Shown here: piece after piece, positions 3,653 through 44,700 of the stretch
How the letters are laid out: each line of letters starts with the position of its first letter
How positions within the stretch are numbered: position 1 is the stretch's first letter
From: Takakia lepidozioides
Lineage: Eukaryota; Plantae; Bryophyta
DNA length: 64,000 nucleotides
NCBI GenBank assembly: GCA_030704615.1
Contig: CM060732.1
Span: 5,952,001 to 6,016,000, forward strand
Direction of reading: 5' to 3'
The notes under the pieces: generated by a model
The model's input: only the letters and a program-made list of their open reading frames with translations
Databases searched by the model: none
What the model was told of the DNA's origin: nothing
Program-made: the position numbers and the translations under genes

Positions 3653-4363
3653 TCTAAGTTCTCGTCTCGCCTTCCTTAGCGCGTGCCCTTTGCTTGTTTG
3701 ATGTGAAATAAAGTGTTCTTCGACGCTTGCTTCTCCCTCGGAATGGGGTCACCGTCTCTGCAGAATCCAGGGTTGCAAAGACAATAAGGAGAAGAGGGAA
3801 AAAAGAGGACTATGGGAGGTTCATCGCAAGACCTTCAACGCCAATATGTTCGCTCGCAACGTTCAGTGCGCCATTGACTCATTCCACATGCATGGCGAAC
3901 ACGTGTCCATCTAATCGTTATAAAATATCGGCGGAGATCATTGGATCCTCATCCATCCAAAAATCGTTGGGGTCTAATCACCACTCATCTGAAAAAGTTC
4001 ATTATTGGGCAATTTATTCTGGGATGTTCCAGAGGAATGTCAAGTATGTACAGTTGTACAGCGGTGCAAGTGCCGTTAAAATTAAATGGAAATGGGCATC
4101 TCTTCTGGCCTCTCTGACATGACAACCAAACGGCGGCTCTGTCAGTCAATCTGTCAACGAATGCACTGGTGGGGCACTTGTGAAAAAACAGTTGGATTCT
4201 AGGATTAGGGCTGACATTATGGACTCCGCATTTGGGCACTCTGTGACCATGCGCTTGGTTCGCATGGGGAGACATTTCACAGAAGTGGAAACCCGCATTA
4301 GGAGATCTGCAAGCCGGAGCGATACCTGCAATTCTCTGTGAGGACGCCAAAAAAGGGAGAGAT

Positions 4364-5647
4364 TTGTATGCGGCGACGGCCGATGACCTCATTCGTGCTC
4401 TGCAGCAGCAAACCAGATATAGGTCATTCTTGAGGGGTGGCCTTGGTGGCAAAGGTCCGGATAGGAGCGAGTTGATGTTGCGGGCAGCTGGAAGATCAGG
4501 GGATCCCAGCAAAATAGCGCGGGCAGTGAGCATATGTGCAGATGGCACCCCTCTCGTGGGAAGAGTTCCCCATCTGGAAGGCGAAGAGAGATTCGGGTCT
4601 TGCAAACGGAAATTGGACACCCCTCCGGGATCGGATGCAGATTCCCATAGGGCGGACATGGTGAACTTCTCGACGCCACGTGTTCCCTTGGATCAGAGAT
4701 GGAATTGCGGAACATCCACAAGTGAGGGCTACTCTGCCCCAGACCGGACCCCTGCATCAAGCATTGTCACTGCAATGGTTGAAGACCAGAACGTGGTGCC
4801 GCATATAATCGAGTCCATGGGCTTGGACGAGGTTTGGCATATAGAACGCACAAGTGCTGGATCTCGTGTGAAATGCGCGGCGATCAGGGCCACCAATCAT
4901 GAAAAATGTACATCATTAATCTCCAGAGGGAAAGAACGCACTGCAGCTCCTACATTCACGGGTTTGTTTCTCCCTTACGGACAAGACGAGGCAAAGAACC
5001 ACAAGTTCTGGTTCTGCGCTGACGATTGTGGGAGATGTGTGCATGGTACAGTGAGGCCTTCCGTGGTAAGGAAGCCTACTCCACCAACCGTGTGGCCTGT
5101 GAAGATGGGCACAGGTCTCACTCACCGAGAGATCGCAATGCTGGAAGAGGCGGGTTTCTCCCTAGCCAGACATTCCATTGCACGTGAAGGTGCTTCAAGT
5201 GGAAGCAGTTCACGGGTACCTCCGCCTGACGCTCACTTGTGGCCAACCAGACGGAATGGGAAGCTGGTTCGACGATTCCCTCCAACCGCAGAACACTACG
5301 GCAAAATTGAGTCCGCCAGAATGCTTCACGCTCGTGTTGCGGGAACAATGGAAGTGCCTGATCCAGGGTATGGTTGGGTCTTCACCATGATCTCATCCGC
5401 ATCTGCGCTGCAGGACAGGACATACGAAATCACTGTTTCCAATTTTTCCAATTGTACATGTCCTGATTTTGTTGGTATGCTTTCAAGTAGTTTGGGAAAG
5501 AGAGGGAAGTTCATACCGTGCAAACACCTTTACTTTGTCTTCTTGAGAAGGATGGTTTGTGATCCAAAGCGCGACTTCTTCATTCACCAAGCCACTACGA
5601 GTTTCAACGAAGTCAACACACTTCTACAGCGGGATACAAGCCCATAA
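4364..5647 (+). CDS. C-terminal part of a MULE-like transposase with SWIM zinc finger
   Basis: 427-aa ORF ending YEITVSNFSNCTCPDF...FIPCKHLYFVF (SWIM CxC...CxH) with an extra Cys cluster (KC...KC...FWFCADDCGRC). Homologous to the SWIM segments at 50339-50626 and 56180-56580. Confidence 0.7.
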   Translation: MYAATADDLIRALQQQTRYRSFLRGGLGGKGPDRSELMLRAAGRSGDPSKIARAVSICADGTPLVGRVPHLEGEERFGSCKRKLDTPPGSDADSHRADMVNFSTPRVPLDQRWNCGTSTSEGYSAPDRTPASSIVTAMVEDQNVVPHIIESMGLDEVWHIERTSAGSRVKCAAIRATNHEKCTSLISRGKERTAAPTFTGLFLPYGQDEAKNHKFWFCADDCGRCVHGTVRPSVVRKPTPPTVWPVKMGTGLTHREIAMLEEAGFSLARHSIAREGASSGSSSRVPPPDAHLWPTRRNGKLVRRFPPTAEHYGKIESARMLHARVAGTMEVPDPGYGWVFTMISSASALQDRTYEITVSNFSNCTCPDFVGMLSSSLGKRGKFIPCKHLYFVFLRRMVCDPKRDFFIHQATTSFNEVNTLLQRDTSP

Positions 5648-6061: not shown

Positions 6062-7709
6062 GAACTCCAGGAAAGCCCAAAACCCTTCATCCGTTTCACC
6101 TTCATGTGGTGAAATCAGCAGTTGGGGGCTCCACGGTTATAGGCCCACCTTCTTTGTGGTGACGTGGCATGACCTGGACCAGGCTCACGCCACGTCAGCA
6201 TCAGCGCCATGTCAGCAGCGTGAGCGTAGGCTCACGCCACGTCATCATTGTGTGAGCGTACGCTCACACGCTCACGCGCCAGGCTCACGCGGTAGCGTCG
6301 TTGTCTCTCTTATCTTAGTATTGTTTGTGACTACAGCAGTGAAAAGCGACAATAGTCGAGCCAATAGTGAAACTTGAAAGTTGAAAATACAAAGGGTGTG
6401 GCTTAGTGTGGTAGTTAGTTCGAGAGGGTATAGTCAATTGGCTGGAGTAGCAAAATATTGAGGTAAATACTTAGTCAATCATTGGCGACCATACAGTGGG
6501 ATAGATGTGCTGATTTAAACAGGACCAAGAAAATGCCAACTAATGGCAGAATATGACGTGGAAAGTCGCGAGACGGATTGCAGCTGTTTACTTGGAGTTG
6601 AATTATCCGGACAAGATGCAATAAGAGCGAAGCGCCAGTAGTGTTGCGTACCTTCAGAGCGGAAATCGAGGGCCGGGATGACACACCAACATATATGGAC
6701 GAGATCAGGGCCAATTCGAAGGCGGTGACATTTTGGAAGAAGTATCCCGATCTCTTTTCCGACAAGAGGTGGACGAGATCTACTAGATAGCGGAGTACCA
6801 GGACTATTTGGAAGCACGCATCCACAGATTCGTGGCGGCGAGATCCAACGGACCAGCGTGGCGGCTCACTTTTGGAGCAGTTAGGCGAGAATTTCAATTG
6901 TCACTGCCTGGCGAAAATCACTACGTGAGGCAGTACGCTCTGCATAACAAGGAGGATGGTCCGTGGGCGCGGTTAGCCAATGACATTGTAAGAGTAAAAC
7001 TGGTAACGAGAAAAGCTCCTGGATTTGACAAATAGTTGATGGTTGGTAGTAAGTTGAAGAGAAAGTTGGGGAATGACTGGATGAATGGACAATCAGTAAT
7101 GAGAACGCGATGAAGATCACATGGATGGAAGTACATGAGAGCTGATGAATGAAGTGAAGGATTACTGGAAGGATGAACTGAATATGAACAGTCAGCATTG
7201 GAGGGCTTCGTTGATGGGAGCAAAGCTTTGTTCTTTGCCTAAGTGCAAAGGAGAGTGCCCAAGGACCAAAAAGGCACACGGCCTAAAGGATATGGGGGAC
7301 CTAAAGCCAAAGGCTAATCCCCTTAGAGCAGGCGGACCCCACGAGGTGGAGCAGCACGGCGCGTGTAGGGGGGGGGGGGGGGCAGGCTGCGTGGCAGCAC
7401 GCTCAGCCAGCCAATCGCGAAAACACCATCATTGGGGGCGAGGCAAACCAATGGTCCGCCCCTTTACCTCAGTTTTACCCCACGGTCCGCCACGCGGTGG
7501 TGGCCACTGGTGCCTCGACACGTGGCAGGTCCACGGGGCAGCGGCATTGACCGCGGGTGTGGGACCAAGGGTCCCGCGCCTTTGTTTTGGGGGGAGGGGG
7601 GGCTATGGGAAAAATACTTGGGGCACTTTTCCCTTCCATTTATTCTCGCATGCTTTACGGGGAATGTATAATTAGAGAGATTTAATTCTCGATTAGCTAG
7701 GGAGTTAGG

Positions 7710-9464
7710 TGTCATGGTTTTGTTTGTGATTAGTTAGAAATAGTTATATATAGCTAATTATGACTTTATACATTTATATTTGTATTTTGTGGACATTGGG
7801 ACTTCATTTGGGTCCACGTACCAAATGAGGTGGCGAACCTCATTTGGGACGTGGAGAGGTTATCTCCACGTGAGACTCAGGAAGGCTCGTCTTCTTCTAG
7901 TCGAGCCTCCCGTGGCCTCTCTCGTCGCCATAGCTTTAGAGCTTGAGCAATCGCGGAGCCAAAGCGGCGCAAACCCTAGCTTGGGAACGCGTGGGAACGC
8001 ATGACAACAGTGCCCCAGGCTGGGAACACCACTATTGAGCCATCGGATGAACTATTGAGCCTATGGATGAAAATTGGTGCACCTGGATGAAAAATCATTG
8101 CGGTGGATGAAAGTGCGCCAGCGGATGAAATCATGGCAGCGGATGAACAATTGTGCCATTGGATGAAAAATCACGGTGGCGGATGAAATTGTGGCAGCAA
8201 ATGAACAATCGCATCATCGGATGAAAAAATGCGGCGGCAAATGAAACTGCGCAGCGGATGAAATCGTGCCAACGGATGAACTATCGCGGTTTTGGATGAC
8301 AAATCGCGCCAGCAGATGATAATCGCGACGTCGGATGAAATCGCACCAGCGGATGAAATATCGGACTTGCGGATGAAAAATCGTGGTTTTGGATGATATT
8401 TGGTCAGCGACAGATGAAATATTGATTGCTAGTGAATATTTTTGTAGCCTTTTGGGGGCTTGTTTGAAGGACTGTTTGGGGTCTATTGAGGCCAATATTT
8501 TGCAGTCCTGTGGAGCCTTCTTGGGGCTGTTTGAAGGACTATTGGAGGTCCTTTGAGGCCAATATTTGGCAGATTTGTGGAACTTTTTAAGGGCTGTTTG
8601 GAGAACTATTGGAGGTCCTTGGAGGCCATATTGGGCAGCCCTGTGGAGTCATTTGAGGGTTGTTTGGAGGGCTGGTTGGCGTCCTTGGAGGCCACTATTT
8701 GACCAGCTCTTGGGCCTTTCGGTGACTGTTTGGAGCCCAAGTTTGCGGACTTCTTGAGCCTCGGTGGGTCTATGTGAGGGGCTGATTGAGGGCAAATTTC
8801 AGAAGTTCATGGCAATAATTTGAGGGCACTTTGAGAGTTATTTGAGAGGTCCTAGTCTTATCTATTGCTCAAGCAATAGTGTGTGTGAAGATATGGGGAG
8901 TAATGGGATGAGAGCATTCTGGGATGAGAGCATTCTGGGCTTAGAGATTGCTTTAGCTTCTCTTCTCCATAGTCTTCCGTCATTCTTGTAGGCCAAAGCT
9001 TTTCCATAAGCGGAGGGAGAGCTAGTTTGGATAGAAACTTTGTCATCTTGGAGGAGCTGCAATGAGATCGATTGATTTAAGGTGTGGGAGGTGTTGTTGT
9101 TTGAGTTTCATGTATTTGGATCCTCCTCCCACACATGCATGCTTGACTGTGCGTCATGCTAGTTTGGTTTGGGCGCTTGTTTTTATAGGTGGTTGGTCCG
9201 GATTTGATCACCGGCCAACCCTAAAGCGTGCTGTCGGTGGTGAGGCTAGGGTGATGACTAGCAAGACTATCATTGTTTCTCTTGTGGTGAGGCTGAGGTG
9301 ATGACCAGCCAACCATAGGAGTACTTGCGGCAGGTGCAGGTGCAGGTTTATGATAAGAACCTAGTATTCTAAACCATAAGCCGCAACAGATTCTCTACTC
9401 GGTTACCTTGTGGAAGGGGGTTTAGAGACAGGTTTACAACCGGTTTGAGTGTGAGTTTTTATCA
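7710..9464 (+). repeat. Putative 5' LTR (TG...CA); left boundary uncertain
   Basis: Begins TGTCATGG and ends TTATCA directly before the PBS-like sequence. Its last ~350 bp are clearly homologous to 49040-49393. Confidence 0.55.
8040..8720 (+). repeat. Minisatellites inside the LTR: ~20-bp GCGGATGAAA units (8040-8420) and ~55-60-bp units (8450-8720)
   Basis: Visible tandem degenerate repeats. Confidence 0.8.
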
Positions 9465-9479
9465 CGGAGGTGCCACCAG
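9465..9479 (+). promoter_or_regulatory. Primer-binding site, tRNA-Gln-like
   Basis: cGGAGGTgCCACCAG follows the LTR-terminal CA and resembles the complement of the eukaryotic tRNA-Gln 3' end (TGGAGGTTCCACCGAG). Confidence 0.5.
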
Positions 9480-9659
9480 TTGCTGATAAGAGTGTCGGTA
9501 GGAGCACCAGCGATACTAGTAGGTATACAAGACGAGGTGTGCGGTTCAAGTTACCTTCATCTTCAGTGTCTTTTGAGGAAGGTTCAGACTCGGAGTCAGG
9601 AGGATTCTCGCCGAGGGTGCAAGCCATTTTTGTGCCATTGTTGTGGGATACGATGGAGG

Positions 9660-10070
9660 AAATGTATGGAGCTACCAACCGGGGGCCTCGTCGGTACTAT
9701 GGAGCTGTGGGCACCATCGAGCTTGATGATTTCATATAGGAGTTTGATAGTTGGTGTGATTTGCAGCAGATGCGCATTCCACAACTGTTTACGTCTTTTA
9801 TGGCGTGGAAGGGGTTGTTCCAACATCTTGAGGGGCTGCCCATGGATGACTATCATGAGTTTAGGCGGGAGAATGCACGATGGATTACACACCATGAACT
9901 CTTCATTCGATTGCAACCAGATCATCCTATAGATGGCTCTATCATGAGAGCTAAAGCCATTGTTACAGACGCGATGTCCTATGATGTGCTTTTTGGTGGG
10001 GCTGTGCTATACCCGATGGGATTCACTCTGGACTTTTGGGAAGAAACGACATCCTACAGGATGGAATGGC
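9660..10070 (+). pseudogene. gag N-terminal remnant joined by internal deletion to an aspartic protease C-terminal remnant
   Basis: ELDDFI*EFDSWCD...LFQHLEG (gag-like) followed by AIVTDAMSYDVLFGGAVLYPMGFTLDFW (retropepsin C-terminal DxLxG-like). Same reading frame as the DNMT. Confidence 0.6.
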
Positions 10071-10462
10071 AGTCAGGGGATGGCCGACGTGCATTGCTCC
10101 CAGTGCGATTTATTGGGAATATAACGGTGGATCATAGAAATATGATGCCCACATTGGCTGCATTCTAAGGGGTGGTGACTTCGGGTGATGAGCTCTTGGA
10201 GGGAAATAACCATGCATATGATAGGTCACCACCTGATGAGGATAAACAATTGGCATACAAGACTGAGTTGCTTCCTATGCCTGTGCATATTCCATTATGG
10301 GGTACGATTGGGAATTTGCATCGAGTAGCAGGCGAGTGTGTGCAACAAGCATGGCAGGAGGCATTTCCATCGGTGGGTGAAGGGAGTTCAGTGACATCAC
10401 CTAGACCTCCTCAGTTAGCTCTTTTGGACACAATGTCCATTACCTGACAACCACCTGACTCA

Positions 10463-11400
10463 GGGATTTGTTTGCTAGACCTGTTTGGAGGCATGAGCAC
10501 TGGGCTTGTAAGAGTGTTGCAAGCAGGGATTAAAATACACAAGTACTTATATGTGGAGAATGATGAGATTGCTCGGCGTGTCTCCATGTGCCATATTGTC
10601 GTGCTCACACACCAGTATCCTGAGTTGTTGCATCTCTCAACAAATCAAGGGTACCAAAAGGCCTTGTCAGTAGACGTTACTTTGCTGGGGGCGGATGATT
10701 TGGACTGACATGGTGACATGGACTTGGTGATAGCCGGATGGCCTTGCCAATGACACTCTCCCGCAGGTCATGGGAATGGTTTGCATGATGCACGGTCGCA
10801 TTTGTTGCGAGTGTTGCGTGACTTGCAGACGAGGTCAGTACAACCTCTAGCCTATATCTTGGAGAATGTTCCTCTTATGGGGGATTCTCGGGCCAGGGTT
10901 ATGGCCAGTGTGCATCAGGTGCGGTCTTGGATTGGATCGGCGGTGCTATTGGATGCAGCAGCGGTGGGATCACGTGCGCATCGACCTCGATTGTGGTGGA
11001 CCAATCTTGCACCACGAGAGCTACTCAAGAGAGCATACGATTCCATTCAACGGCCACCCAATCTCACGATTGAGGGCATTTTGGACTAAGGGAGGCTACC
11101 TCAAATGATGCGACATGATGACCGTCCACCTTTGGCGGTGGTCAATCGAGTGGGGCAGCCACGTGCGGCCTTACCTACACTTATGAGCTTTTCCTCGTCT
11201 CATACTTTCTGAGACGATGGTCCTGGGTTGATTTGGGACAATGTGCTACAACAATTGGTGGAGCCTAATGCGGATGAGCGAGAGCTAGCAATGGGGTTTG
11301 CCACAGGCACTACAGCTGTGACAACTCTGTCAGAGGCATCACGTATGTTGGGTCAAGCAATGGATCTAAATTGCTTAACATGGGTCATTGGCTTGTGCAT
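10463..11400 (+). pseudogene. Retrotransposon-encoded C5 DNA cytosine methyltransferase, DNMT3-like, with in-frame stops
   Basis: All in one frame: motif I ICLLDLFGGMSTG, motif II YLYVEND, motif IV DLVIAGWPCQ (Cys codon 10745-10747), motif VI YILENVP, motif VIII LDAAAVGSRAHRPRLWWTNL, motif IX ERELAMGF and motif X SRMLGQAMD. Confidence 0.9.
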
Positions 11401-11903
11401 GGCTGAGCAATGGAGAATGCAAGCAGTGGTGGCTACTTCGGCTCTCCCATTGGATAGTGCATCCTCCATACCAACCAGAACGACCGAATCATGGGGTGCA
11501 AACACCCATGACAAATGTGGGATGAGATGCGCAAAGAGAGAGTCATTGGATCTCTCAAGCAACGATATGAGGAGTGGGGAGAGCTATATACTGAGGATCA
11601 GTTGGAGGCCAAGGTGACCAAGGTTTTTGAAGAAGTTGAGGATGTTTTTTCCCCAGAGGATGTTCTCAAGGTGGCTATGGCGGAGCAAGTGGAGGCTACG
11701 CAACGGTCAGAGTGGGCGGATAAGGCCCAAGAGGTTGCTATCTAGCAACCAAAGGATGCGTCTCTTACCTCCAAGCCTGATGTACCCAAGATTGCAGTCA
11801 TTGAGGACAATTTGAAACCAGATGTTGGACCTACAGTCGCGGAGGAGAGAGACGGAGGATCCAGTGATTTCTAAGGGCTTATAGGAATTGCTTTGCCTTC
11901 TGT

Positions 11904-13140
11904 TTGAAGGATTTGGGGAGTTTGAAGGGCCAAGAGATTCGTATTGATTTGGCAAGTGACACGCCAATTTTTCGAAGGCCCTACAAGTATAGTGACATGG
12001 AGAGGTCTTTGATCCAGTCACGGACTATCTACGACAATTGGACAGAAAGAAGGATGTGTGGGGACTATCGTCTTGTGAACCGTCCGACTAAGTCTGATAG
12101 ATATGTCATGTCAACTCCAGAGGAGCCAGAGGAGATCTTTGATGCCATTGGGCATACAAAGGTGTTTAACACCTTGGACTTGCGATCCGGTTACCAGCAG
12201 TTGCCAATCAAAGAGGCTGACAGACAAAAGATGGCATTCTGGGGGATTGATCAGTATGGGAAGGATTGTTTGTACCAATGGCGATTCTTACCATTTGGGT
12301 TGAAAAATGCTTCTGCAGAGTTTCAGAGGTTCATGGATAGGATTCTCGCGGAGCTAGACATCACCTGGTGCTACATTGATGACATTTATCGTCTTTAGTG
12401 CTACGGTTGAGGAGCATGAGAGACATCTCCAGGTGGTGTTAGAACGCTTGAGAGCGCATGGGTTGAAACTGCACCCTGGAAAGTGGATGTTCTTCCACGA
12501 TCAGATTGAGTATCTGAGACACATGATATACCGTGTAGGATTAGGTGTTCAACAGACAAAGGTGGAGGCCATTGCATGTATTCCACGTCCCACAGATGTG
12601 AGCAGAGTTCGTGCTTTCATGAGGTTGGCAAACTACTATCGAAGGTTTGTCAAGGGATTTAGCAGCATTGCAAAGGCTCTTACCAAGTTGACCAAGGTGT
12701 ATCAGGAGTGGCAGTGGGAGGAGGAGCAGGAGGAAGCCTTTGAGGAACTCAAGGATCGATTGACTTCTACACCTATTTTGAGGCGGCCTTTCCAGTTACA
12801 TACAGATTGGAGTATGCTGGGGATTGAAGCAGTGCCCACACAGGTGGACGATGAGAGAAGAGAGATTGTGGTGGCATATGTTAGCCGCTCGAACAATGAT
12901 GCTGAGGCGAAATATAGTTCATATGAAGGGGAGTGTCTAGCTGCGGTATGGGCAGTGGCACATTTTAGATGTTACCTCTATGGCAATTTCTTCACCCTTG
13001 TCACAGATTACCAACCATTGAAGTGGTTGATGGAGTCAGATAAGCTTACACGGTGGGCACTTATGCTTCAAGAGTACGACTTCCAGGTGGTGCATCTAGC
13101 CGGTATAGTCAATCGGGATGCAGATGGGTTGAGTCGTAAT
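11904..13140 (+). pseudogene. Ty3/Gypsy reverse transcriptase and RNase H (frameshifted)
   Basis: RMCGDYR..N, LDLRSGYQQ, LPFGLKNA, YIDDI; RNase H LHTDWS, YSSYEGECLA, LVTDYQPL, RWALMLQEYDF, DADGLSR. Confidence 0.95.
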
Positions 13141-13189
13141 CCATGCATGAGCAAGCATGCTCACTACTGATGTTAGCACAAATGTCTAT

Positions 13190-13651
13190 TTGTTATCCAA
13201 GAACCCTCAACCATACATGGTTTGAAGTCATTACCTTGTAGCCGGTGGAAGGCTTGTAATATGATGTGCTTAATACACTGGAAACAAACGTTGTTGTTGG
13301 CTTTGTCCACACCGGAAATATAAAGATGACTTAGTTCTCCCAACAATAGTCAGTGAGCCATACATGCATAGCTCCCAACCATTCACATGAACTCAGGTTT
13401 AGCAAAGTACAGACCTGGTCCCAAGCAAGTTGGACTGAAGTGACCACCTCATGCAAGTACAAAGGACGCATGGGAATGTGATTCAGCCCACAAGTAAACA
13501 AATGTCTCAGTTGTGTATGTCTTATGATATTGACATCCATAGACCTTACATGTGTGCATGCTTCTAAATTCACATCATGAAATTTATCACTAGTCAAAGG
13601 ATCAACAAAAGCTTGCAATCGCTTGGACTTGGAACAACCACATGTATTCAA
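13190..13651 (-). mobile_element. Penelope-like retroelement fragment (region N-terminal to RT)
   Basis: TCGCSKS...HVRSMDVNIIRHTQLRHLFTCGLNH followed by HLYISGVDKANNNVCFQCIKH. This matches my recollection of the CxC..HV.TGDL..I....LR.L..KG and DKA.NN..C motifs upstream of PLE RT. Confidence 0.55.
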
Positions 13652-13699
13652 ATAGAGCTTATGTACACACTATACACTCACTTATCCCACAAATCCCTA

Positions 13700-16040
13700 T
13701 TAAAGAACTCAATGTTTGTTGCAACTTGGAAGCTTTATGGCCCCATCAAGTACCAAGAACTCTGTGGAGGTTTTGAAGGGGTAAAAGGTCAAAGAAAACT
13801 GACACGAGGATGTGGAGGTTTTAAAAGAGGAGGTAAAAGCCGTAAAAGAGAAACGATATAAGGTTGTGTAGGTCTTAAGGGAGGAGGTGAGATAGGTCAA
13901 AGAAAAACGACACAAGGATATTGGCCGTTTTGAAAGGTGAATGCCTCAGACTCGTTTATAAGATGTTCAACACGGCCTCCCGTGACGACGACATGGACAT
14001 CAACGAAGATTTTGTTTTTTCTCAAGGTGAATGATATACCTTTAATATTTGTAATATCTCGAAAGAACTCGATGTTGTTGCAACTTGCAAGCTTTATGGC
14101 AACCATCAAGGACCTTAAGAACTTTGTACAGGTTTTGAAGGGAGGAGGTGAGAAAGGTCAAAGAGAATCGACACGAATATGTGGAGGTTTTAAGAGAGGA
14201 GATTAGAGAGGTCAAAGCGAAATGACACAAGGATATCAAGTGCGAATTAGCCGTTGTGAATGGCGAATGCCTCAAACTCATTATGAAATCTTCAACAGGG
14301 CTTACTGAGGCGACGACATGGACATTAACGAAGAATATTTTTTTTCTCAAAGTGAGTGACATACCTTTAATATTCGTATCAGATATGTAGTCTCAGTACT
14401 CAATTGGGAAAAGTTTGGTTTCTTTATAGGTATAATGAACTTAATAATTGGATTATTTAATATTATACCATAGTAGATGAAGAAGTTCTACAAGTATTTG
14501 TTGAAATTTTCCATAAATTTTCTTGAAGTATTTTCTTGAGTTAGATGTCATCGTGTCGTCTCTTATAAAAATCAAGATAAATTATATGTATTCATTGAGT
14601 TTAGATAATCTTAATATAATAACTTGGGGTTGAAGTTGCACATTTGCTTATCCGACAAACCCCTAAATTTTGGCCATGCAAAAAGATTGCAACTAACAAG
14701 CTTTATGGCGACCATCAAGGACCTCAAAAACTCTGTAGAGGTTTTGAATGGAGGAGGTGAGAGAGGTTAAAGAAAATGACACGAGGATGTAGAGGTGAGA
14801 GAGGACGTTAAAAAAACGACATAAGGATGTAGAGGTTTTAGAGGAAGAGGTGAGATAGGTCAAAGAGAAACAACACGAGAATAGCATCGCAAATTGACCG
14901 TTGTAAATGGCACTAGTAGTAATCCGTGCTTTTCGAATGGTGAGTGCCTCAAACTTGTTTTTGAGATCTTTAACATGGCCCACCGAGGTGTCGACATGGA
15001 CATCTACAAAGAATATTTTGTTTTCTCAAAGCAAGTGACATACCTTTACCATCTGTACCGGATATGTCTTCTCAGAACTCCATCGAGACAAGTCTGATTT
15101 CTTTATAGGTATCAGAGTTCAATAGTTTGATTCTTTAATCTTAGACTATAAGAGATGAAGTTCTCTAAGTATTTGTTGGAGTGTCGTCTCTTCTCGTAAT
15201 TGAGATGAATTATATCTATTTATTGAGTTTAAATAATTATATTGTAATATTTTTAATCAATTTATTATTGAAACCATTCAATCTTGAGCACCACAAATGA
15301 TTGTGTGTGTGTTTTTCAACCAATAGATCATTAGGAAAGGACATTCAATATTATTCATTGAATTGAGGAGTGAATGGATGTTTTTTTTAATCAAATCCCC
15401 ATAAAACTCAAAGATGAAAACAATATGCCTCTCTATCATATTTGTTGTATGTATTTGGAATTTTTGCAATCCTTGCATAATTGTCTATGCTAGGTTTCCA
15501 CTATCTTGTAGAAATTGTATATGATGTACAGATGATAATCGTTTCTCTCCAAGTTCTTTATAGGTATAAGAGCTTAATAGTTTGATTCTTTAATCTTAGA
15601 TTATAATAGATGAAGAAGTTCTATGAGTATTTGTCAGAGTTTTTCATGATATTTTCAGAAGCCTTTTATTGAGATAGATGTCATCGTGTTGTCTCTTCTC
15701 ATAATTGAGATGAACTATATGTAATCATTGAGTTTAAATAAATAGATTGTAATATTTTAATCAATCTATTATTGAATACATTCATTCTTGAGCACCACAA
15801 ATGATTGTGAGTGTGTTTTTCAACCAGTTCAATATTATTCATTGAATTGAGGAGTGAACGGATGTATTTTTTTCTATCAAATCCCCATAGAACTCAAAGA
15901 TGAAAAAACAACATGCATCTCTACTATATTTGTTGTATGTATTATGAATTTTTACAATCCTTGTGTAACTATCTATGTTAGGTTCTCACTATCTTGTAGA
16001 AATTATATATGATGTACAAATGACAATCATTTCTCTCCAT
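13700..16040 (+). repeat. Degenerate tandem segmental duplications
   Basis: A ~350-bp unit at about 13702, 14062 and 14697. A second unit starting tctttataggtat occurs at about 14421, 15100 and 15555; the last two copies are ~455 bp apart. Confidence 0.8.
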
Positions 16041-16217: not shown

Positions 16218-19200
16218 ATGGCAAAAAAATCCAAAGGGGGAGCAAAAGCCCCGAAACATGTGTTGGCTTATGGAGATGAAGCGTATTGGGATAATCGCTA
16301 TACCCAAGAGCCAAATTCGTTTGATTGGTATCAACAATACTCCGGCTTGGCACATATAATCAATACATACATTCCTAAGACAAACCGCATATTGATTATT
16401 GGGTGCGGTAATGCAGGTGTGCAATTGGGGTAATTTTATTTGTTGCACATATTTATGTAAAAGACTGCTTGGGAACTTAGAATTTTTCTAATTGCTCTTG
16501 CAATTTCATTATTTGCTCAACACGTACAATATAGATTTTTTTTAAAAATCATATGTTGCAATAGATGTTTTTAAGGTTGGGATTTTTGTAAACAATGTCT
16601 TATCTTGACGTATAAATTAGATATATAGTTCAGAATTGTAATTACTGACCAATTCAATGTCAAAACTCTAGTACGGTTGGTAGAATTGGAATGTTTAGCT
16701 GGCAAATTGTAATTATTGTCCTCCTTATTCAATCCTACATGTCTCTTGTCAATTTTGATTAAGAAAAACAGCCCAGTTAATTTCTAATGTTTGCACCTTG
16801 ATGCAAACAACTAATCAAAAAATTTAAATTGATAAAATGATTACTTACAATTCATTCTACAAAGAATGAGATTTTTTTCCTATACGATCCTCTTTATTTT
16901 TTGGGCATATATCTTTATTTTTATATCTCATCTACCTCCATTTAGGTTTGTCTTATGGATTATCTGAAAATAGAACCAAACATTAAATAAGAGAATTATT
17001 AATAACTTTGTAATATAAGGAGAACTTACTTTGATGCAAGAAAATAAATAAAAAATAAAAACTATAATAGACAGTTTTTCTCTTATGGGAAATGGCCAAA
17101 ACTTTTATAAATCGATTTCATTGTCCCTAATACTGAAATTTTGGATCTATTCTTGCGGGTTATGGGACAGACATGTCAGAGGATATGATGAAAGATGGCT
17201 TTACAGAAATTGTAAATATAGATATATCTTCTGTTGTGATTGGAGCAATGCAAACAAAATACAAGGGGGTGAAGGAAATGACATGTACTGATTGAACACT
17301 TGTTGAGCATGATTTTATTCTCGATAGAAAACATGGTCTTTCTAATAATAAGGGATTTTGTTTACATATGCAACTCATCTACCAAGTTATTAATGTCAAT
17401 AAGTGATTTTTGATGCTCTACTTATACGATGAAACAACTGAATCTAAAATTCTGAATATGAGCTTGTCAGATATATTAGCTTTATATAAAGATATTTGTT
17501 GGTTTTTTAAATAATTTTGTTCCATATTTGAAAATTTGAAAATTTCTTCTTAAAGAGCATTACACTGAGAAGCCAACAGTGTTTGATAAGAAACGCAGTC
17601 TTTAGGATGGATGTGCGAGAACTCAAGATGTTCAAAGAGCTGACATTTGACTCTGTTGTAGATAAAGGTAATTGTGATTTTATTCTCATTTGGATTAGAT
17701 GCAAACCTAAACAAAAACATAGTTCAAGTAGTTGATTGATAAGGACATTCTTTTATTTATTGAATATCATCCATATTCAATTAAAGTTGTAGTATCATAA
17801 TCTATACGATATTGAAATTTGAAGATTGGTGAGGTCTTTAGGACATGTTATGGAATTTATATTAGTCCATGATCAAAATTACAAATATCAATGTTTGACA
17901 TTTGTAATTGGCTGTGAATAGTGAAACACGTTTTTATAAATTAGGTTTTTGTATCATTGTTCATGTGGACTCTGCGGTGTGGGTTTTGGGCGACATTTGT
18001 ATTTTAGGCATGCTCGACTCCCTATTGGTAAGTCTTATTTTGAAACATTATTTAAGAATATGTTCAATGACATTTATGTTATGAAATTAATATAATATAT
18101 TCCTTTAATTAGCCGATCAATTTCTTTTTTGTGTTAGATGGTGGAGGTTTTTATATTGTATTTCATTTTTTGTGGGAATAACGTAGATGGACGGGTAAGG
18201 TGTGGAAAATGATCTATATGTAGATTGTTTACTGCAAGAATGTCCTTATTGGAAAAGATAAAAGATACTAATACATTCAATGTACATATGTCTGCTTAAT
18301 TACATCGGAACAACGATATTACAATGTCTGGGTCTTGGATTTTTAGAGTAATTAGTTTAGCCAAAGTGAACAAGAGTTTCAAAACAGACATTTATAATTT
18401 TATTGAATATGAATTAATTAATTAATTAATATGGGAATACGTTCTTGAACAATACTATTCTAGAGCATTTTAGACTCTAATTGCTTTAATTTTTCCCACA
18501 AAGCTATTCTTTCTGGATCATTTTGTACAATATTAAGGTGTATGTTCCAAAATTTTACCCACTATTTCATCTTATTTTTCGTTTGGTTCCCATATTGCTC
18601 CAAGTCTCTTTTGACCGCCATTAATAATGAGGTCATAATTTGTGAGTCAAAACATGATTATTATTTATTAAATTGATGATGATTATTTTTCAAATATTTC
18701 ATGGATTTGGCAAAGTCTAATGCATCAATATTGAGTGGATTATCTTGATGTTGTCTCTATTTTGTTGTGTGTGGTCTCTGATCTCATTGACTTGGTGACC
18801 TCAGTGTGGAGCCGATGCTTATACGAGTGTACAACAAATGCTATCAGAAGTCCGCAGGTTATTGTTTTTTCACTCATTGTTTGCATTGATAGGTTATTTT
18901 TCCCCGCTCTTTATAAATATTGCTTTCAAACTCAACGTGTTGTTAGAATCTTTTGACAAAATCACTTATGGTACTAAAGGATATTCTATGAATCTTACAA
19001 AATATTTGGGATTTTATTTTATTTAAACTAATTATATATCTTGAGGGTTATAATAAATCATTCATATCGTATCATAATTCTCGGTATGGCTATATCTACA
19101 TAGGAATTTTCATATAAGGTGGAGTAAAATTGTTGAATATTTGTGGAATGAAGTGTGAAATGTAACAAAAATATTATGTTTTGATCTCGAGCAGCTTATT

Positions 19201-22200
19201 TGTCTTAGCCAATGATTAAAGTTGAATCTCTCTAATAGATTTTACGCTACATGACATTGGGTTTAAGCATTAACTTTGATCTCTAGTAGCTCAACCAATT
19301 AACAAACAAATGTACTACAAAAATACTTCAAAACATGTCTAAAATTATCTATATGAAACCTATAAGTCTTGAGCTATATAAGCTTTTAATTAATTTATGA
19401 GTTTTAACACATTGAAAAAAATATAAGTATGGATTCTTGCCAAAGCAAGCGTAATTACTTATGATGTCACTTGATCCCCAAGGACTACTGCATTCCGATG
19501 GGAAGGTGTATACACCTTCATGACATCCAACACAATGCTTATGTGGTTTTGAGCCCACAACCACTAGAGAAATGGTATTATGCTCTAACCACTGGACTAT
19601 CTATTGGATGGAAAAAATGTATGTGGTTTGTGCCAGAGTTTTGAGACCAGAAGGTGTATATGTTTTGGTACGTACCCCATGTTTTTTAACTTACATTATT
19701 GTTTTGATGTGATAGGAAATTGGATGAATATAGTTTTATGTGTATATCGGTACAAAACTAACAATAATATTAAAATTAAAATTAAAAAAAACTCAAGCAA
19801 AAGCAAACGTGTAACTTATGATATCATTTCATTCCGAAGAACTTTTACGTTCCATTTGGAAGATGGACGCTCTAATGGCAGTAACTGGGGCAATGCGGTT
19901 GCCCAACTCTTCCCCAAGTACTCCAAAGTTCCCAAGTGTCCACACATTAAGTAATTAGTTGACCCAGGTACTCCCCTTTTATAGCTAGGTTGGCCATAAT
20001 GGGTCAGATCCAATATACACCTATGTGGCTTTGAACCCACGACCACTTGTACGACGGCACTTGGCTGCCATCTGTAGTGGAGGCTCAAAACTAGCATAAT
20101 TGGGGACAAAACTTCCTCTCATACATATATACTAGGGTAGCCTCTGCCGTTGGCCCAAGTGTCGAGTGTCATCTAAGTCCAAGTGCAATCCCCTATGTAT
20201 CCAAGTGCGTCTCCTATGTCGAGGCCCAAGTGCGACCTCTAGGGTAGCCTGTGCCGTTGGCCCATGTGTGAAAAATTGAAATCTAAGACCAAGTGCAATT
20301 TCCTATGTATCCCAGTGCGTCTCCTATGTCGAGGCCCATCTAAGGCCAAGTGCAATCTTTTATGTATCCAAGTGCATCTCCCATGTAGAGGCCCATCTAA
20401 GGCCAAGTGCAATCTTCTATGTATCCAAGTGCATCTCCCATGTAGAGGCCCAAGTGTCCACTGTCATCTAAGCCCAAGTGCAATCTTCTATGTATCCAAG
20501 TGTTTCTCCCATGTAGAGGCCCAAATGCGACCTCCAGTGTCCAATGTCATCTAAGTCTAAGTGCAATCCCATATGTATGCAGAGACCCTACAATTTGGAA
20601 GCTCTCCACGTCATTGTTCCAGCAAATCCTAGTTTGCTATTTTTGCAATCTCCCCTGTCGAGGCTTCATATATTGATATATCCACTTTTCTATTTTTTAC
20701 GAATTTCCAACGACCAAAAGTACTTGAAATTCCAGATCTCCCACATGAAGGGCCCAATCATTGCTCCAGGAAAGCCCACTTTGCTATTTTTTGGGAATTT
20801 CCAGCGACCAAAAGTACTTGAAATTCCACATCTCCCACACCGCAGTCCAAAATTTATGAGACCAAGTCGGTGCACCCCTCCTCATCCAGGGCTTTCCAAC
20901 GGTACCAAGCACCAGGGCTGGGGCCCCGCAGTTCGGGACATCTCAACGTGTCAAAACAAACAAAACAAACTGGCTTGCTTCATATATTGACTAGGGTAGC
21001 CTGTGCCGTTCGTCCAAGTGTCCAGTGTCATCTAAGTCCAAGTATAAGATCTTCTATTCATGTATCCAAGTGCATCTCCCATGTAGAGGCCCAAGTGTAC
21101 AACTTCATCTAAGCCCAAGTGCAATCTCCTATGTATCCAAGTACGTCTCCAATGTCAAGGCCCAATTTATTTTTTCCATGAATTATTGAGTAGCAATATA
21201 TCCAATCATTATTGATATATCTCCCGTCAAGGCTCCAATCGTTGCCCCAGGAAAGCCCACTTTGCTATTTTTCACAAATTTCCATCGACCGAATGTACTT
21301 GAAATTCCATATCTCCCACACCGCATGTCCAAAAATCATCATACCAAGTCGGTGCACCCCTCCTCATCAAGGGCTTTCCAACGGTACCAAGCACCAGGGC
21401 TTGGGCCTCGCGGTTTGGGACATCTCAACGTGACAAAAACAAAACAAACAAACTAGCTTCCTTCATATATTGACTAGGGTAGCCTGTGCCGTTGGCGCAA
21501 GTGTCCAGGGTCATGTAAGCCCAAGTGCAATCTCCTATGCATTCAAGTGCGTATCCTATGTCTAGGCCCAAGTATGACCTCCAGGGTAGCCTGTGCCGTT
21601 GGCCCAAGTGTCGAGTGTCATCTAAGTCCAAGTGCAATCCCCTATGTATCCAAGTGCGTCTCCTATGTTGATGCCCAAATGCGACCTCTAGGGTAGCTTG
21701 TGCCATTGGCCCAAGTGTCGAGTGTCATCTAAGCCCAAGTGTAAGATCTTCTATGTATCCCAGTGCGTCTCCTATGTCGAGGCCCAAGTGCGACCTCTAG
21801 TGTAGCCTATGCCGTTGGCCCATGTGTGAAGAACTGAAACCTAAGACCAAGTGCAATTTCCTATGTATCCAAGTGCGTCTCCTATGTTGAGGCCCAAGTG
21901 CGACCTCTAGTGTAGCCTATGCCGTTGGCCCATGTGTGAAGAATTGAAACCTAAGACCAAGTGCAATTTCCTATGTGTCCAAGTGCGTCTCCGCTATGTC
22001 GAGGCCCATCTAAGCCCAAATGCAATCTTCTATTCATGTATCCAAGTGCATTTCCCATGTAGAGGCCCAAGTGTCCGATGTCATTTAAAATCTCCTATGT
22101 ATCCAAGTACGTCTCCCATGTCAAAGGCCTCATTTATTCTTTTCCATGAATTTATTGAGTACTAATATATCAATGTATCTCCCGTCGAGGCTCGTCGAAG

Positions 22201-25200
22201 CTCCAATCGTTGTTCCAGGAAATCCCACTTTCAAGCTATTTTTGGGAATTTTCAGCGACCAAAAGCACTTGAAATTCCAAATTTGCCACATGATGGGCCA
22301 ATCATAGCTCCAGGAAAGCCCACTTTGCTATTTTATTTTTGAATTTCCAGCGACCCAAAGCACTTGAAATTCCATATCTCCCACACCGCCGGTCCAAAAA
22401 TCATGAGACCAAGCCGGTGCACCCCTCCTCATTGAGGGCTTTCCAACGGCACTAAGCACCAGGCCCGCGGTTTGGGAGATCTCAACGATGCTACAAAACA
22501 AAACAAAACAAACGTCTTGATTAATCTAGGGTAGCCTGTGCCGTTGGCCCAAGTGTCCAGTGTCATCTAAGTCCAAGTGCAATCCCCTTATATTCATCCA
22601 AGTGCGTCCCCTATGTCGAGGCTCAAATGCGACCTCTAGGATAGCCTAGTGTGCGGTTGGCCCAAGTGTCCAGTGTCATCTAAGCCCAAGTGCAAGATCT
22701 CCTATGTATCCAAGTGTGTCTCATATGTTGAGGCCCAAGTGCGACCTCTAGGGTAGCCTGTGTCATTGGCCCATGTCTGAAGAATTGAAATCCCAGACCA
22801 AGTGCAATTTCCTATGTATCCCAGTGCATCTCCTATGTCGAGGCCCATCTAAGCCCAAGTGCAATCTTCTATGTATCCAAGTGCATCTTCCATGTAGAGG
22901 CCCAAGTGTCCACTAAGCCCAAGTGCAATCTCCTATGTATCCAAGGGCATCTCTGATGTGCGTCTCCCATGTCGAGGCCCATCTAAGCCTAGTGTGCAAT
23001 CTCCTATGTATCCAAGTATGTCTCCCATGTCAAGGCTTGATTATTTTTTTTCCATGAATTTATTGAGTAGTAATATATCCAATGTCATCTAAGTCCAAAT
23101 GCATTTTTTTTCCCCAAAGCCTACGACCAGATTTGAACCGGAGACCTTTCCCTTGATATCTCTCCTGTCGAGGCTCCAACCATTGTCCAGGCCCAATTTG
23201 CTATTTTTTTGCGAATTTCCAACGACCAAAAGTACTCGGAAATTCCAAATTTCCCACGTGAAGGGCCAATCATTGCTCTAGGAAAGCCCACTTTGCTAGG
23301 GTAGTCTGTGCCGTTGGCCCAAGTGTCCAGTATCATCAAGGCCCAGTGCAATCCCTATGTATCCAAGTACATCTCCTATGTCGATGCCCGTGTGTGAAGA
23401 ATTGAAATCTAAGCCCAAGTGCAATCTCCTATGTATCCAAGTGCTTCTCCCATGTAGAGGCCCAAGTGCGACCTCCGATGTCCAATGTCATCTAAGTCCA
23501 AGTGCAATCCCAAAGCCCACTTTGCTATTTTTGCAATCTCCCTTGTCGAGGCTTCATATATTGATATATCCACTTTGCTATTTTTGGGAATTTTCAGCGA
23601 CAAAAAGCACTTGAATTTCCAAATCTGCCACATGATGGGCCAATCATAGCTCCAGGAAAGCCCACTTTGCTATTTTTTTCGAATTTCCAGCGACCCAAAG
23701 CACTTGAAATTCCATATCTCCCACATCGCCGGTCCAAAAATCATGAGACCAAGCCGGTGCACCCCTCCTCATCGAGGGCTTTCCAACGGCACCAAGCACC
23801 GGGGCTGGCCCCGCGGTTTGGGAGATCTCAACGACGCTACAAAACAAAACAAAACAAAACAAACGTCTTTATTCATATATTGATACACAAACCCCAAAAT
23901 TTGTTGGCTGTCATAAAAGTGTTACTGTCCCATCGGAAGGCCGGGTGTACTGATATCATAGGTTACATTTGCTTCGGCAAAAATCTACTATATATATAGT
24001 GCTACGTGATTGAGTTTTTTGTAAATGCGGTAGAAATTTGATACAAGAATTGTCTACTTTTATACCCATATTGAATGTCAATATAATATAATATATTGTG
24101 ATCTAGACATATACTACTATTGGGAGTTGATTACTAGCAACACAATATTAACTATCAATCTATTTTGCATGCACAACATAGTCTCCATTGGTGGTCATAA
24201 GCCTCCCTGGAAGAAATAGACCGTGTCAAATCATTTGTCAATCCTGAAGCCTATACCTGGTTTGGGAGACACTAATTACACTCAAAACGATGCGGGAGAG
24301 CAAAAAACAACTTCTCTTTCAAAATTTTACTCAATTAGTCAACCCTATATGTGTCCAATCCCACTTCCGTTTGGTAACTATATATTGTGTAATTGTGGCA
24401 GACACCGCTCTATGATGGAAAAGACTTACATGCTCTAGAGTATATTTCACGTTAGGTGGTGGTCTTTACTAAAAATTGAGATGTCCATTGAAATTTATTT
24501 TATTTTTGCTCAAAATTACAGTTTAATTGACTAGACAATTATAAGACTAATGACTTGTTTACAAATAGGTTACATATGGAGATCCCCGCGTGCGTATTCC
24601 TCACTTGAAGACTTCAGAGTTTCGATGGAACATTATTCTTTATGTTCTTCGTACGTAATTATCTCATATTGAGGTTATTATATTATAATCTCAACAACCA
24701 AGTTGTAGCCCACTCTTAATGGACACATACCACCTCGGAAGTGGTTGTGGGTACAATACACCAATTGGTGTCACCAAGGTGTCCATTTTCCTGCTGGAAG
24801 GCAATAGTCAAATGACACCATAACTTACACTGCCTTCAAGAGGCATCATACTTTACTTCATGATAATCTCATTGCACTAGTTTGTTAGAGATATCCATAA
24901 AATGACAAACATTGTATGCATGTACAATATGTGTAAAAGCTGATAATAAGAATTTCCAATTTGTAGGATATGGAGGTACTTCATTTTTAGGCCTCATATA
25001 ATTAGAATATTTTTATCACTTGGAGAATTAAGCACTCACATATCTCACATATTTTCTAGCTTTCTAACATTCTCAATTTGGTTAGTATAACATTTTTGTC
25101 GAATTGAGAGTTATTGGAAATAAATATTTTACTATTATTTTTATGTTGAATCTCTACAGTCGCATTGAAATAATAATTATTGTGTTTTTTCTTTGAATAA

Positions 25201-28358: not shown

Positions 28359-29430
28359 ATGATGAAGTTCGCTCTGATTTCGGGATCTCTTCGGAAGGCG
28401 TCCTTCAACAAAGGCCTCCTGCGTGCAGGTTGTTAACGAATGAATTTTGAAGGCAATATCAATTTACTGGCGATGCTTTGCTTATTGGTCTGGACTCTCA
28501 CTGATGTCTTTCCAACTCAATGCAGCACAGGAGATCGCAAGAGACCACTTGACGGATGTGGAGGTCGAGATTATCGAGATTGGTAATCTGCCCTTCGTGA
28601 ACACGGATCTAGAGGTGGATAACCGATACCCCGAGCCAGTGACGGCCTTCAGGTCAAAAGTGCAGAAAGCAACAAGTGTCCTATTTGCCTGTCCTGAATA
28701 CAATGGTTCCATCACTCGTGAGTACTCTCTGCGCTTCACTTGACCATTTGCTACTCTTCCTGCTTGGAGGTAAAGGTCTGTTGGCAAAGACATGTTTCAG
28801 AGTCATGTCTCTCTTTCAGACACATTGGTAACAACGGATGCTGGTCCCAAACCATCGCGTTTAGAATGCATTTTTTTAAATGGTAAAAGATGTCCTAGTA
28901 ATTCAGCCCAGGCTGTGCCATTCTTGCCTTGGCTTCTCTGCACTTTTTCGCATAACATCAGGAAGTGACACTACTATCCATGCACTAATACGAATCACAG
29001 TATATTTGAAGCTACTAACTTCTTGGCAGGCAGATACTGAAGAAGTTTCTAATTTCATAGGAATCGCACGTGTCTTGTTTCCTTTTCATTATCTACTAAC
29101 ATGTCCCGCTCTCTCTTTCCAGCTGCGCTCAAGAATGCCATAGACTGGGGCTCACGGTTTCCAAATGTGTGGTCAAACAAGCCAGCGGCGGTCATTAGTG
29201 CTGGAGGTGGTTTCGGTGGGGGAAGAGCAAGCTCTCATCTCCGTCAAATTGGCACTGCTTCATACATCGACCTGTATTTTATTAACAAACCAGAGCTCTA
29301 TGTGCGAGCATTTGAGCCCCCTAATAAGTTTGATAAGGATGGGAACCTCATTGACAGTGCCACGAGGGAGGGCGTGAAGGCTGTAGTGGAGGCCCTGCGA
29401 TCTTGGACAATCCAGTTGGGGCATCGATAA
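28359..29430 (+). CDS. NQR: NAD(P)H:quinone oxidoreductase / NADPH-dependent FMN reductase (189 aa, 3 exons)
   Basis: Exons 28359-28428, 28526-28717 and 29123-29430, 570 nt in frame. Motifs ISGSLRKASFN, LPFVNTDLE, FACPEYNGS, LKNAIDWGSR, GGGFGGGRA, LYFINKPE, KFDKDGNL. Confidence 0.93.
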
Positions 29431-43899: not shown

Positions 43900-44700
43900 G
43901 ACAGACGGTATGCCTCCGTTTACAACATGGTCAGTATGCATGCAAATCCAAATTCAAGATCGACAGTCCCTATTTGGTGTATCAATTATTACGCGAGTGG
44001 GGTGCTCTATTTCTACCACGGGGGACCAATGTCAAGGCGCATGACGATCCTGTCCATCTCACTGACCTTGTTCATTCCGAGCTAGTGTTTGATTTAACTT
44101 GCATCAACGTGGTCAAAAAAGGTAGCTGACAAATCAACAAGGTCAGAAAGAGTAGAGATCATTGTGGGGAACAATGTAACGGATCCGTACAACAAGAGCG
44201 TCCATACAACAATTCAAATGGCATCTTCTTGATACTAGCATGCATAGCGGTGCGATAAGCAAAGAATATAGGGGGCAAAAAAATATCCCACTCCCTGGTG
44301 AGTGCACCATTTTTCTCCAACATTTGACAAAGAGTCTGGTTAAACCACTCCGTGAGGCCATTGGTCTGGGGATGATAAGGAGTTGTAGTCACATGCTTCA
44401 CACCAAAATTGAAGCATATCATCGTGAGTAATTGATTATAGAACTCCTTACCTTGGTCCCTGAGGATCTCCCTAGGACACCCATAGCGCAGGATGATCTC
44501 ATAAAAAAAACCCTAAGCCACAGCATCACTACTCTTGATATGCAAAGGACGGACTTCTACCTATTTGGTCAAGTAACCAGTGGCAACACAAAGGTAGCTA
44601 TGACCTTTTGACGTGAAAGCAAGGGGTCATACTAAGTCAATCCCCACACGAGCAAAAGCATGAGTAACGGATAGGGATTGGAGCTCATAAACAACTATGA
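43900..44700 (-). pseudogene. Ty3/Gypsy integrase remnant
   Basis: FARVGIDLV, FGVKHVTTTPYHPQTNGLTEWFNQTL, WDIFLPPIFFAYRT..HAS....PFELLYGR. Confidence 0.85.

Follow-up and report, generated by a model that had tools for sequence, protein, structure and literature searches.

A decayed Ty3/Gypsy element of the bryophyte Takakia lepidozioides belongs to a land-plant family with a DNMT3-like methyltransferase domain ahead of the reverse transcriptase

Why a retrotransposon should carry a cytosine methyltransferase, the very type of enzyme that is used to silence it, is the question raised by a locus of Takakia lepidozioides in which such a domain lies between the protease and the reverse transcriptase (RT) of a Ty3/Gypsy element. 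The window analysed here is a stretch of 64,000 nucleotides (contig CM060732.1, positions 5,952,001 to 6,016,000 of the forward strand), and all coordinates refer to it. The only Gypsy case given in the accessible text of de Mendoza et al. 2018 (PMC5890265) is KnitGypsy-Dnmt3 of Klebsormidium nitens, for which methylation of the cDNA was proposed; there the methyltransferase (DNMT) is said to share an open reading frame (ORF) with RT and RNase H, and the capture is treated as specific to the K. nitens lineage. Later papers, as far as their accessible passages go, refer to this type of case as 'streptophytes', and methylase-encoding transposons have been described as absent from land plants such as tracheophytes (Morozov et al. 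2019, PMC6338049).

The copy in the window is organised as follows, with all parts on the plus strand:

7710..13157, +: decayed, internally deleted and 3'-truncated Ty3/Gypsy element of the DNMT3-bearing clade; its left end is a candidate and its right end a break point
7710..7716, +: putative left terminus TGTCATG, coinciding with the step in depth
8031..8701, +: tandem arrays with units of 18-76 nt and 67 nt, the presumed 5' leader
9479..9871, +: N-terminal remnant of Gag, identified by its sequence match to intact ORF1 proteins
9869..10114, +: aspartic-protease region, C-terminal half only; the deletion has removed the DSG catalytic motif seen in relatives
10463..11407, +: DNMT3-like C5 cytosine methyltransferase domain, unpermuted and intronless, with PC, ENV and RxR motifs present
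11743..11751, +: TAG CAA CCA, the conserved end of ORF1 in a CAR YYA context of the read-through type, behind a frame change near 11490-11500
11844..12561, +: reverse transcriptase with an internal deletion and frame breaks near 11840 and 12387
12652..13157, +: Ty3-type RNase H, just behind which the copy stops; integrase, PHD finger and 3' repeats are missing

The left edge of the element is marked by a rise in summed contig depth from below 100 to above 10,000 within the bin 7702-7935. Past the bin ending at 13317 the depth drops to a few hundred, and loose contig ends at 13157-13159 run on into family sequence that is absent from the window. TGTCATG corresponds to the opening seven letters of repeat A in related complete elements, and the window copy retains neither a matching right end nor a target duplication for it. 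Together with its reverse complement CATGACA at 8000, the TGTCATG at 7710 brackets a stretch of 297 nt (7710-8006), without target duplication, which may represent the complete left repeat of the window's family, unlike the A-only left end of related loci. A continuation of the element was not found elsewhere within the 64-kb window, where the integrase at 44198-44686 resembles that of the family at just 31-34%.

The Gag remnant matches residues 5-130 of the intact ORF1 protein P0389 at 52% and residues 1-74 of Marchantia Mp4g09160 at 76%, and a deletion at ~9870 removes ~600 codons comprising the rest of Gag, the zinc knuckle and the N-terminal half of the protease. A single plus-strand frame from 9503 to ~11490 contains the Gag remnant, the protease half and the methyltransferase, in agreement with the preliminary description, which had placed an intronless domain with canonically ordered motifs in frame with Gag and protease remnants. 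The best relative of the window RT among solved structures is the RT of Ty3 (E 5e-36), which, with the Ty3-type RNase H, bears out the Gypsy identity. RT similarity begins ~440 nt past the domain (at 11844), close to the ~500 bp first estimated, but RT lies out of the DNMT frame in this copy. The copy is dead, with in-frame stops inside the DNMT domain (10706, 10751, 11087, 11210) and upstream of it (9737, 10166, 10445). The preliminary description had likewise called the copy dead, with several in-frame stops; the further stop at 11743, between DNMT and RT, is a feature of the family and not decay. When compared with other copies in DNA run X1, the window has A/T against their G/C at 292 places and the reverse at 161, an excess expected from C-to-T decay.

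The methyltransferase motifs follow each other in canonical order as LFGG (F at 10484), ENDE, GWPCQ (PC at 10742-10747), ENV (10862), HRPR (10979), ERELAMGF and LGQAMD (11348), and the match to Pfam DNA_methylase (PF00145), on which the initial assignment had been made to depend, reaches 35.6 bits against a cut-off of 22 (E 9e-9). With a profile score above cut-off and motifs I, IV (PC), VI (ENV), VIII (RxR), IX and X present, the domain is a C5 cytosine methyltransferase domain. In a sequence search of the PDB the top 29 of 49 matches are DNMT3A, DNMT3B or DNMT3C (best E 9e-8), and DRM does not appear before E 0.02; a profile of the family finds DNMT3A at 5e-22, DRM at 7e-11 and the bacterial enzymes HaeIII and HhaI at 1e-6. 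An AlphaFold model of the domain (pLDDT 71, pTM 0.77) retrieves DNMT3 chains alone among the Foldseek matches listed from the top 50 ranks, with a best E of 2.5e-14 and TM scores of 0.61-0.70. The unpermuted motif order and the nearness of DNMT3 thus assign the domain to the DNMT3-like enzymes, as proposed at the outset, rather than to DRM, DNMT1 or prokaryotic ones. It shares the linear motif order with host DNMT3 of animals and Physcomitrium, and DNMT3A is its best match by both sequence and fold; in contrast to these enzymes, however, it is only ~22% identical to DNMT3A and is a bare catalytic domain within a retrotransposon ORF, to which the context preference of those enzymes is not transferable. 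The first cluster retrieved from the ESM Atlas is a streptophyte DNA_methylase cluster of 57 members, followed by phage enzymes. A search of viral contigs gave six matches (of 28 pattern matches), all of them weak phage methyltransferases, and among these there was no viral donor.

The preliminary description had asked whether other family members carry the domain at all. They do: the family order is Gag, zinc knuckle, protease, DNMT, RT, RNase H, integrase and PHD finger (80 metagenome loci), with RT behind the DNMT in 55 of the 61 loci that have at least 900 nt downstream and protease ahead of it in 47 of the 57 with upstream room. These loci had been chosen by their DNMT, and a search with RT and RNase H only was added as a counter-check. 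It found the DNMT in 17 of its 150 best representatives, and in two RT/RNase H trees every DNMT-bearing row lies on one side of one branch (support 97 and 94); the rows without a DNMT on that side are of insufficient length to reveal one. Among 78 long homologues, 21 are named to organism (16 from Marchantia polymorpha, two each from Sphagnum and Closterium, one from Calypogeia), those of Marchantia, Calypogeia and Sphagnum being at 44-65%. The best 120 of 186 short homologues include 11 named ones: four from Calypogeia, two from Sphagnum, two from M. polymorpha, one from M. paleacea, one from Riccia and one from a bacterial metagenome bin. No vascular plant occurs among these 198 listed homologues (78 long and 120 of 186 short). 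The family member deposited under a bacterial bin (P0103, Obscuribacterales) is probably eukaryotic contamination.

Two DNA runs of one sample (X1 and X2) yield 6577 and 13819 contigs on positions 7000-14000, the host's own copies being visible solely as such short contigs. Their summed depth, which is not a copy number, is 9,000-229,000 over the DNMT, 40,000-244,000 over RT and RNase H and 36-80 on the outermost flank bins, so that DNMT and RT depths are of the same order and two to three orders above the flanks. From a further run, presumed to be RNA, come 24 contigs, most of them divergent; 10744-11679 is covered by none of these, which weighs neither for nor against expression. The DNMT is an old, family-wide feature. 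That the window copy alone captured a retrocopy of a host DNMT3, or is an assembly chimera, has nothing in its favour besides the window copy being dead; the same domain order in 55 of 61 loci and in liverwort and moss proteins, the like depths of DNMT and RT and the congruent DNMT and RT groupings leave this a negligible chance, and we regard it as ruled out by the family data.

Between lineages the DNMT appears, as judged from substitution patterns, to be under purifying selection, the absence of which among copies had been named as a refuting point. For the window compared with 74 loci, the median pN is 0.25, pS 0.71 and omega 0.14 (68 unsaturated pairs, with pS near saturation and pairs that are not independent); the corresponding omega is 0.115 for RNase H and 0.27 for protease. 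Within the main locus family, pN/pS from variants present in at least four copies is 0.61 for the DNMT, 0.70 for protease and 0.32-0.35 for RT, RNase H and integrase, in a comparison that repeated C-to-T decay inflates. Singletons behave neutrally (1.09), and most copies of this family are dead, with 3 stop-free DNMTs among the 41 that are full-length. Placed beside the Ka/Ks below 0.2 of the KnitGypsy type, the domain stands at 0.14 between lineages (near saturation) and at ~0.6 within one family, most of whose copies are dead. Together these values suggest that the DNMT has been constrained over deep time about as much as the protease, and recently less than RT. The catalytic Cys is kept in 47 of 49 distinct copies, and the Glu of ENV in 49 of 52.

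The same data bear on whether the domain acts as an enzyme at all. It might instead be retained for a non-catalytic job, such as nucleic-acid binding or particle spacing, or damp the element to the host's benefit, methylation being weak or absent, a reading that is favoured by the within-family constraint being weaker than that of RT and by composition: a signature of self-methylation is absent, with a CpG observed/expected ratio of 0.54 in the element and 0.59 in the DNMT compared to 0.59 for the window average and 0.61 for a neighbouring transposon, and CHG is depleted in the element to no greater degree than in the remaining window. The KnitGypsy DNMT also gave no methylation in yeast, a result that its authors call inconclusive, and the idea of a host benefit is raised in the same paper (PMC5890265, as far as its accessible text goes). 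The SAM-binding, PC, ENV and RxR motifs, however, are kept from Klebsormidium (GFPCQ) to bryophytes, and we consider a non-catalytic or damping role improbable.

The descent of the family was followed in quick tree searches, with supports given as SH-aLRT and without host DNMT3. In the DNMT tree, which has phage outgroups only and from which 5 of 101 element rows were left out for short coverage, the window domain is sister to those of Marchantia, Calypogeia and Sphagnum (clades 86 and 97), and the window RT/RNase H groups with that of the same genera (97-99). A clade of RT/RNase H sequences unites the window, Marchantia, the locus L014, Klebsormidium KFL_008720020 and Closterium (SH-aLRT 93), which favours the kinship with Klebsormidium elements that had been suspected; K. 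nitens is represented in this tree by a single fragment of 407 residues. In KFL_008720020 the DNMT likewise lies upstream of RT and RNase H, and is 34% identical to the window domain over 99 residues. The first RT tree was built without the long multi-RT rows and with only 35 of the DNMT-less ones, and one protein, P0540, shifted position between the two RT/RNase H trees. On the grouping with Klebsormidium and Closterium, as obtained from a quick tree with one K. nitens fragment, we suggest that the family is the land-plant branch of KnitGypsy-Dnmt3, and that the lineage was probably inherited from streptophyte algae (Klebsormidium, Closterium) and not newly captured in bryophytes.

A second architecture, in which the DNMT lies downstream of RT and RNase H and is followed by integrase and PHD finger, in some cases with Tudor or G-patch, is present in P0043, P0044, P0061, P0573 and ~30 more proteins. 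These form their own clade in the RT and DNMT trees (98-100), which includes the chlorophyte Haematococcus lacustris; in the RT/RNase H tree this sister clade has a support of 98, and both clades together 94. The simplest reading of the two architectures is a single ancient capture, after which the domain changed place, two separate captures being a possible alternative in trees that hold no host DNMT3. Within bryophytes, moss-type elements (L008, L018) and Marchantia elements are very close, with ~72% in the DNMT and up to 80% in RNase H, and the two liverworts are not grouped together, a possible sign of horizontal transfer between bryophytes or of parallel lineages of old date.

The preliminary description had assigned the DNMT to one polyprotein with RT, and in this respect the domain order was correct for the family, but in the land-plant branch the DNMT ends ORF1 and a conserved stop stands behind it. 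Each of the 27 linkers that were read contains a single stop, always at one position and followed by RT in an unchanged frame, and among 54 aligned linkers the stop is present in 53, as TAG CAA CCC (38 times) or TAA CAA CCC (12 times). L056, from a distinct family, has TAG CAA CCA in frame, identical to the TAG CAA CCA at 11743 of the window, despite different flanking linkers. Three sequence families share, in equivalent positions between DNMT and RT, a stop followed by CAA CCN; the motif was unreadable in three decayed loci (L066, L076, L077) that belong to another subfamily. The ORF1 proteins of Marchantia, Calypogeia and several other relatives end 94-100 residues past motif X with similar last residues, and more distant ones end 71-163 residues past it. 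RNA folding behind the stop gives hairpins in two families, in folds made without controls.

UAG CAR YYA is the read-through signal of TMV, where, according to the accessible text, the short product is about ten times as abundant as the long one (PMC2754532). The UAG CAA CCA of the window and L056 matches this TMV-type signal exactly, and non-structural enzymes likewise lie behind the stop; the main locus family differs in having CAA CCC, one base off CAR YYA. We think it likely that ORF1 encodes Gag, protease and DNMT, with termination at the UAG as the usual outcome, and that RT, RNase H, integrase and PHD finger would be made by a minority of ribosomes reading through it. The recoding site of retroelements usually lies between Gag and protease, whereas the candidate site of this family comes after Gag, protease and DNMT. 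With the stop at this place, the DNMT is likely produced at the level of Gag, the capsid protein. In the algal-type relatives P0401, P0475 and P0037 and in Closterium P0421, DNMT and RT share a single open frame, so that across the entire clade bulk synthesis of the DNMT is not a necessity.

Two features of the linker leave some room for a genuine stop without read-through, with RT, RNase H and integrase expressed from a spliced RNA, by re-initiation or by internal entry and the DNMT still within ORF1: the main family has CAA CCC in place of CAR YYA and, two codons on from the stop, an ATG. The accessible text of Neumann et al. (PMC6317226) describes plant elements in which Gag or Gag-protease forms a first ORF of its own. 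Inheritance from one master copy would, moreover, explain the conservation of the stop within a family, which counts against read-through. CAA CC after the stop nevertheless recurs in three families with differing linkers, where the chance expectation is 0.6% (of the window's 5804 stop triplets, 35 have CARYY behind them), RT is in the same frame in 27 of 27 linkers and there is no ATG at this place in the window or L056. We therefore judge expression without read-through to be unlikely.

Complete relatives start with TGTCATG and end with CACGACA or similar (TG...CA). A target duplication of 4 bp is present at five of the six independent insertions with both ends (L060, L062=L064, L016, L078 and L042), L019 being ambiguous, and one more is deduced from an overlapping pair. 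Rather than two complete LTRs of identical type, the relatives exhibit split repeats of the form A...B-A-B or A...B: the arrangement A-coding-B-A-B is complete in L060, L062/L064 and L019, partial in L008, L017, L029 and L059 and absent from the truncated window copy, with B-A(-B) behind a purine tract in eight loci and B alone in nine. The B-A junction consists of CA, two variable bases and TG (L008 14742-14743, L060 10495-10496 and six more loci), and resembles joined cDNA ends. A circle-like intermediate cut by integrase at this CA-nn-TG junction would account for both repeat forms, and the A...B form may in part reflect collapse in short-read assembly or B-by-B recombination.

What, then, would the enzyme do for the element? 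Taken together, we slightly favour the view that the copy in the window is a dead member of a Ty3/Gypsy family of bryophytes, and that the ORF1 of this family, Gag-protease-DNMT3-like, would deliver the enzyme at the level of Gag, such that it is packed in the particle and methylates the element's own new cDNA. The protease would release the DNMT within the particle, where it would methylate double-stranded cDNA de novo before integration, and the new copy would arrive pre-marked and be treated like ordinary methylated chromatin; for this methylation before integration, with its pre-marking, we put the chances at even. The enzyme could alternatively work in the nucleus, during or after integration, its target being the insertion site or host chromatin picked by the PHD finger of the integrase, rather than cDNA in the particle. 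The clade does couple a DNA methyltransferase with a PHD reader, the DNMT directly precedes the integrase in the chlorophyte-containing sister clade, and the host DNMT3 of the moss Physcomitrium makes de novo CG and CHH methylation (PMC6453930, accessible text). In the land-plant branch, however, the DNMT ends ORF1 and is separated from the integrase by the stop, RT and RNase H, an arrangement that better suits a role in the particle, and nuclear action seems to us an unlikely substitute for methylation of the cDNA.

A wider and distinctly more speculative picture is that of a green-plant-wide Gypsy clade with a DNMT3-like writer and a PHD reader, which would predate the chlorophyte/streptophyte split and survive in high copy number in mosses and liverworts; there the recoding site would have moved behind the DNMT, the enzymes would equal the capsid proteins in number and pre-methylate the cDNA, and integrase would cut the CA-nn-TG of a circle-like intermediate, from which split repeats flanked by target duplications would result.

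With KnitGypsy-Dnmt3, as far as the accessible description goes, the family shares an intronless, unpermuted Dnmt3-like domain in a Gypsy polyprotein, split repeats of the A-coding-B-A-B form and, as far as the between-lineage value goes, purifying selection. It differs in its land-plant host, its abundance and the conserved stop between DNMT and RT, so that the two lie in the same open frame only in the algal-type relatives. The PHD finger, TG...CA ends, 4-bp target duplications and A-ORF-B form belong to the window family and have no mention in the accessible description of KnitGypsy-Dnmt3; the relatives found here range over Zygnematophyceae, bryophytes and one chlorophyte, compared to K. 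nitens alone in that description. SymbioDIRS-Dnmt3 and SymbioLINE-Dnmt of Symbiodinium (PMC5890265) and EpiLTRs (bioRxiv 10.64898/2026.05.21.726589) resemble the family in encoding a C5 methyltransferase within a retrotransposon, that of SymbioDIRS being of Dnmt3 type, with domains that set de novo CG methylation in yeast (PMC5890265). According to the accessible texts they differ in belonging to other element classes (tyrosine recombinase, LINE) or in having DNMT4-related domains with DAM and chromodomain, and are of independent origin. Gypsy-7a_cRei of Chlamydomonas (bioRxiv 10.1101/2022.06.16.496473), compared by its description only, is a Gypsy polyprotein of the green lineage with a PHD finger, and no DNMT is listed for it in the accessible part. 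For the plant lineages of REXdb (Phygy, Selgy, Tcn1, Chlamyvir), the accessible text of Neumann et al. (PMC6317226) mentions no comparable accessory domain, and it does not contain the word 'Marchantia'.

In the openly searchable literature we found no description of DNMT3-Gypsy elements from land plants or chlorophytes, or of a stop behind the DNMT, in accordance with the initial view that no land-plant lineage had been characterised; subscription papers, Repbase and supplementary trees may hold some. The additions to the known picture are the occurrence in land plants, a stop following the DNMT, the form of the termini (split repeats, TG...CA, 4-bp duplications) and the sister clade containing a chlorophyte.

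The remainder of the window contains host genes and other repeats:

32602-36456, -: hydroxyproline O-arabinosyltransferase (HPAT) gene, with 8 exon matches
29053-29430, +: exon of an NADPH-dependent FMN reductase
16218-17800, +: spliced class I methyltransferase-like gene, labelled by eye; its first exon has no Pfam match
4247-5647: transposon remnant, SWIM-finger ORF
55135-56288: transposon remnant, cysteine-rich ORF
44198-44686, -: transposon remnant, decayed rve integrase
1175-2860, -: transposon remnant, ORFs without Pfam matches
20094-23815, 47243-47839 and 52065-54089: degenerate tandem arrays of complex structure; numerous inverted arms occur in the last of them

The first exon of the HPAT gene is 67-68% identical to those of Sphagnum, Ceratodon, Riccia and Marchantia, 63% to that of Ginkgo and 56% to that of a lycophyte, and the HPAT tree places it with bryophytes (SH-aLRT 83), outside the liverwort clade; by this one gene the host is likely to be a moss or hornwort.

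Retrotransposons that bear the enzyme used to silence them were known from a charophyte and from dinoflagellates, and are now represented by full-length ORF1 gene models in Marchantia polymorpha (Mp4g09160, Mp5g06330, Mp5g06860, MpVg00370, MpVg00540). Four Marchantia ORF1 models (Mp_Vg00370, Mp_Vg00540, Mp_Vg00480 and Mp_Vg00690) are located on the male sex chromosome, V, and carry the annotation of ordinary hypothetical genes. Such models inflate DNMT counts, and could add methylation once the elements are derepressed. Marchantia is also a genetic model with methylation mutants, in which it can be asked what the enzyme gives the element.
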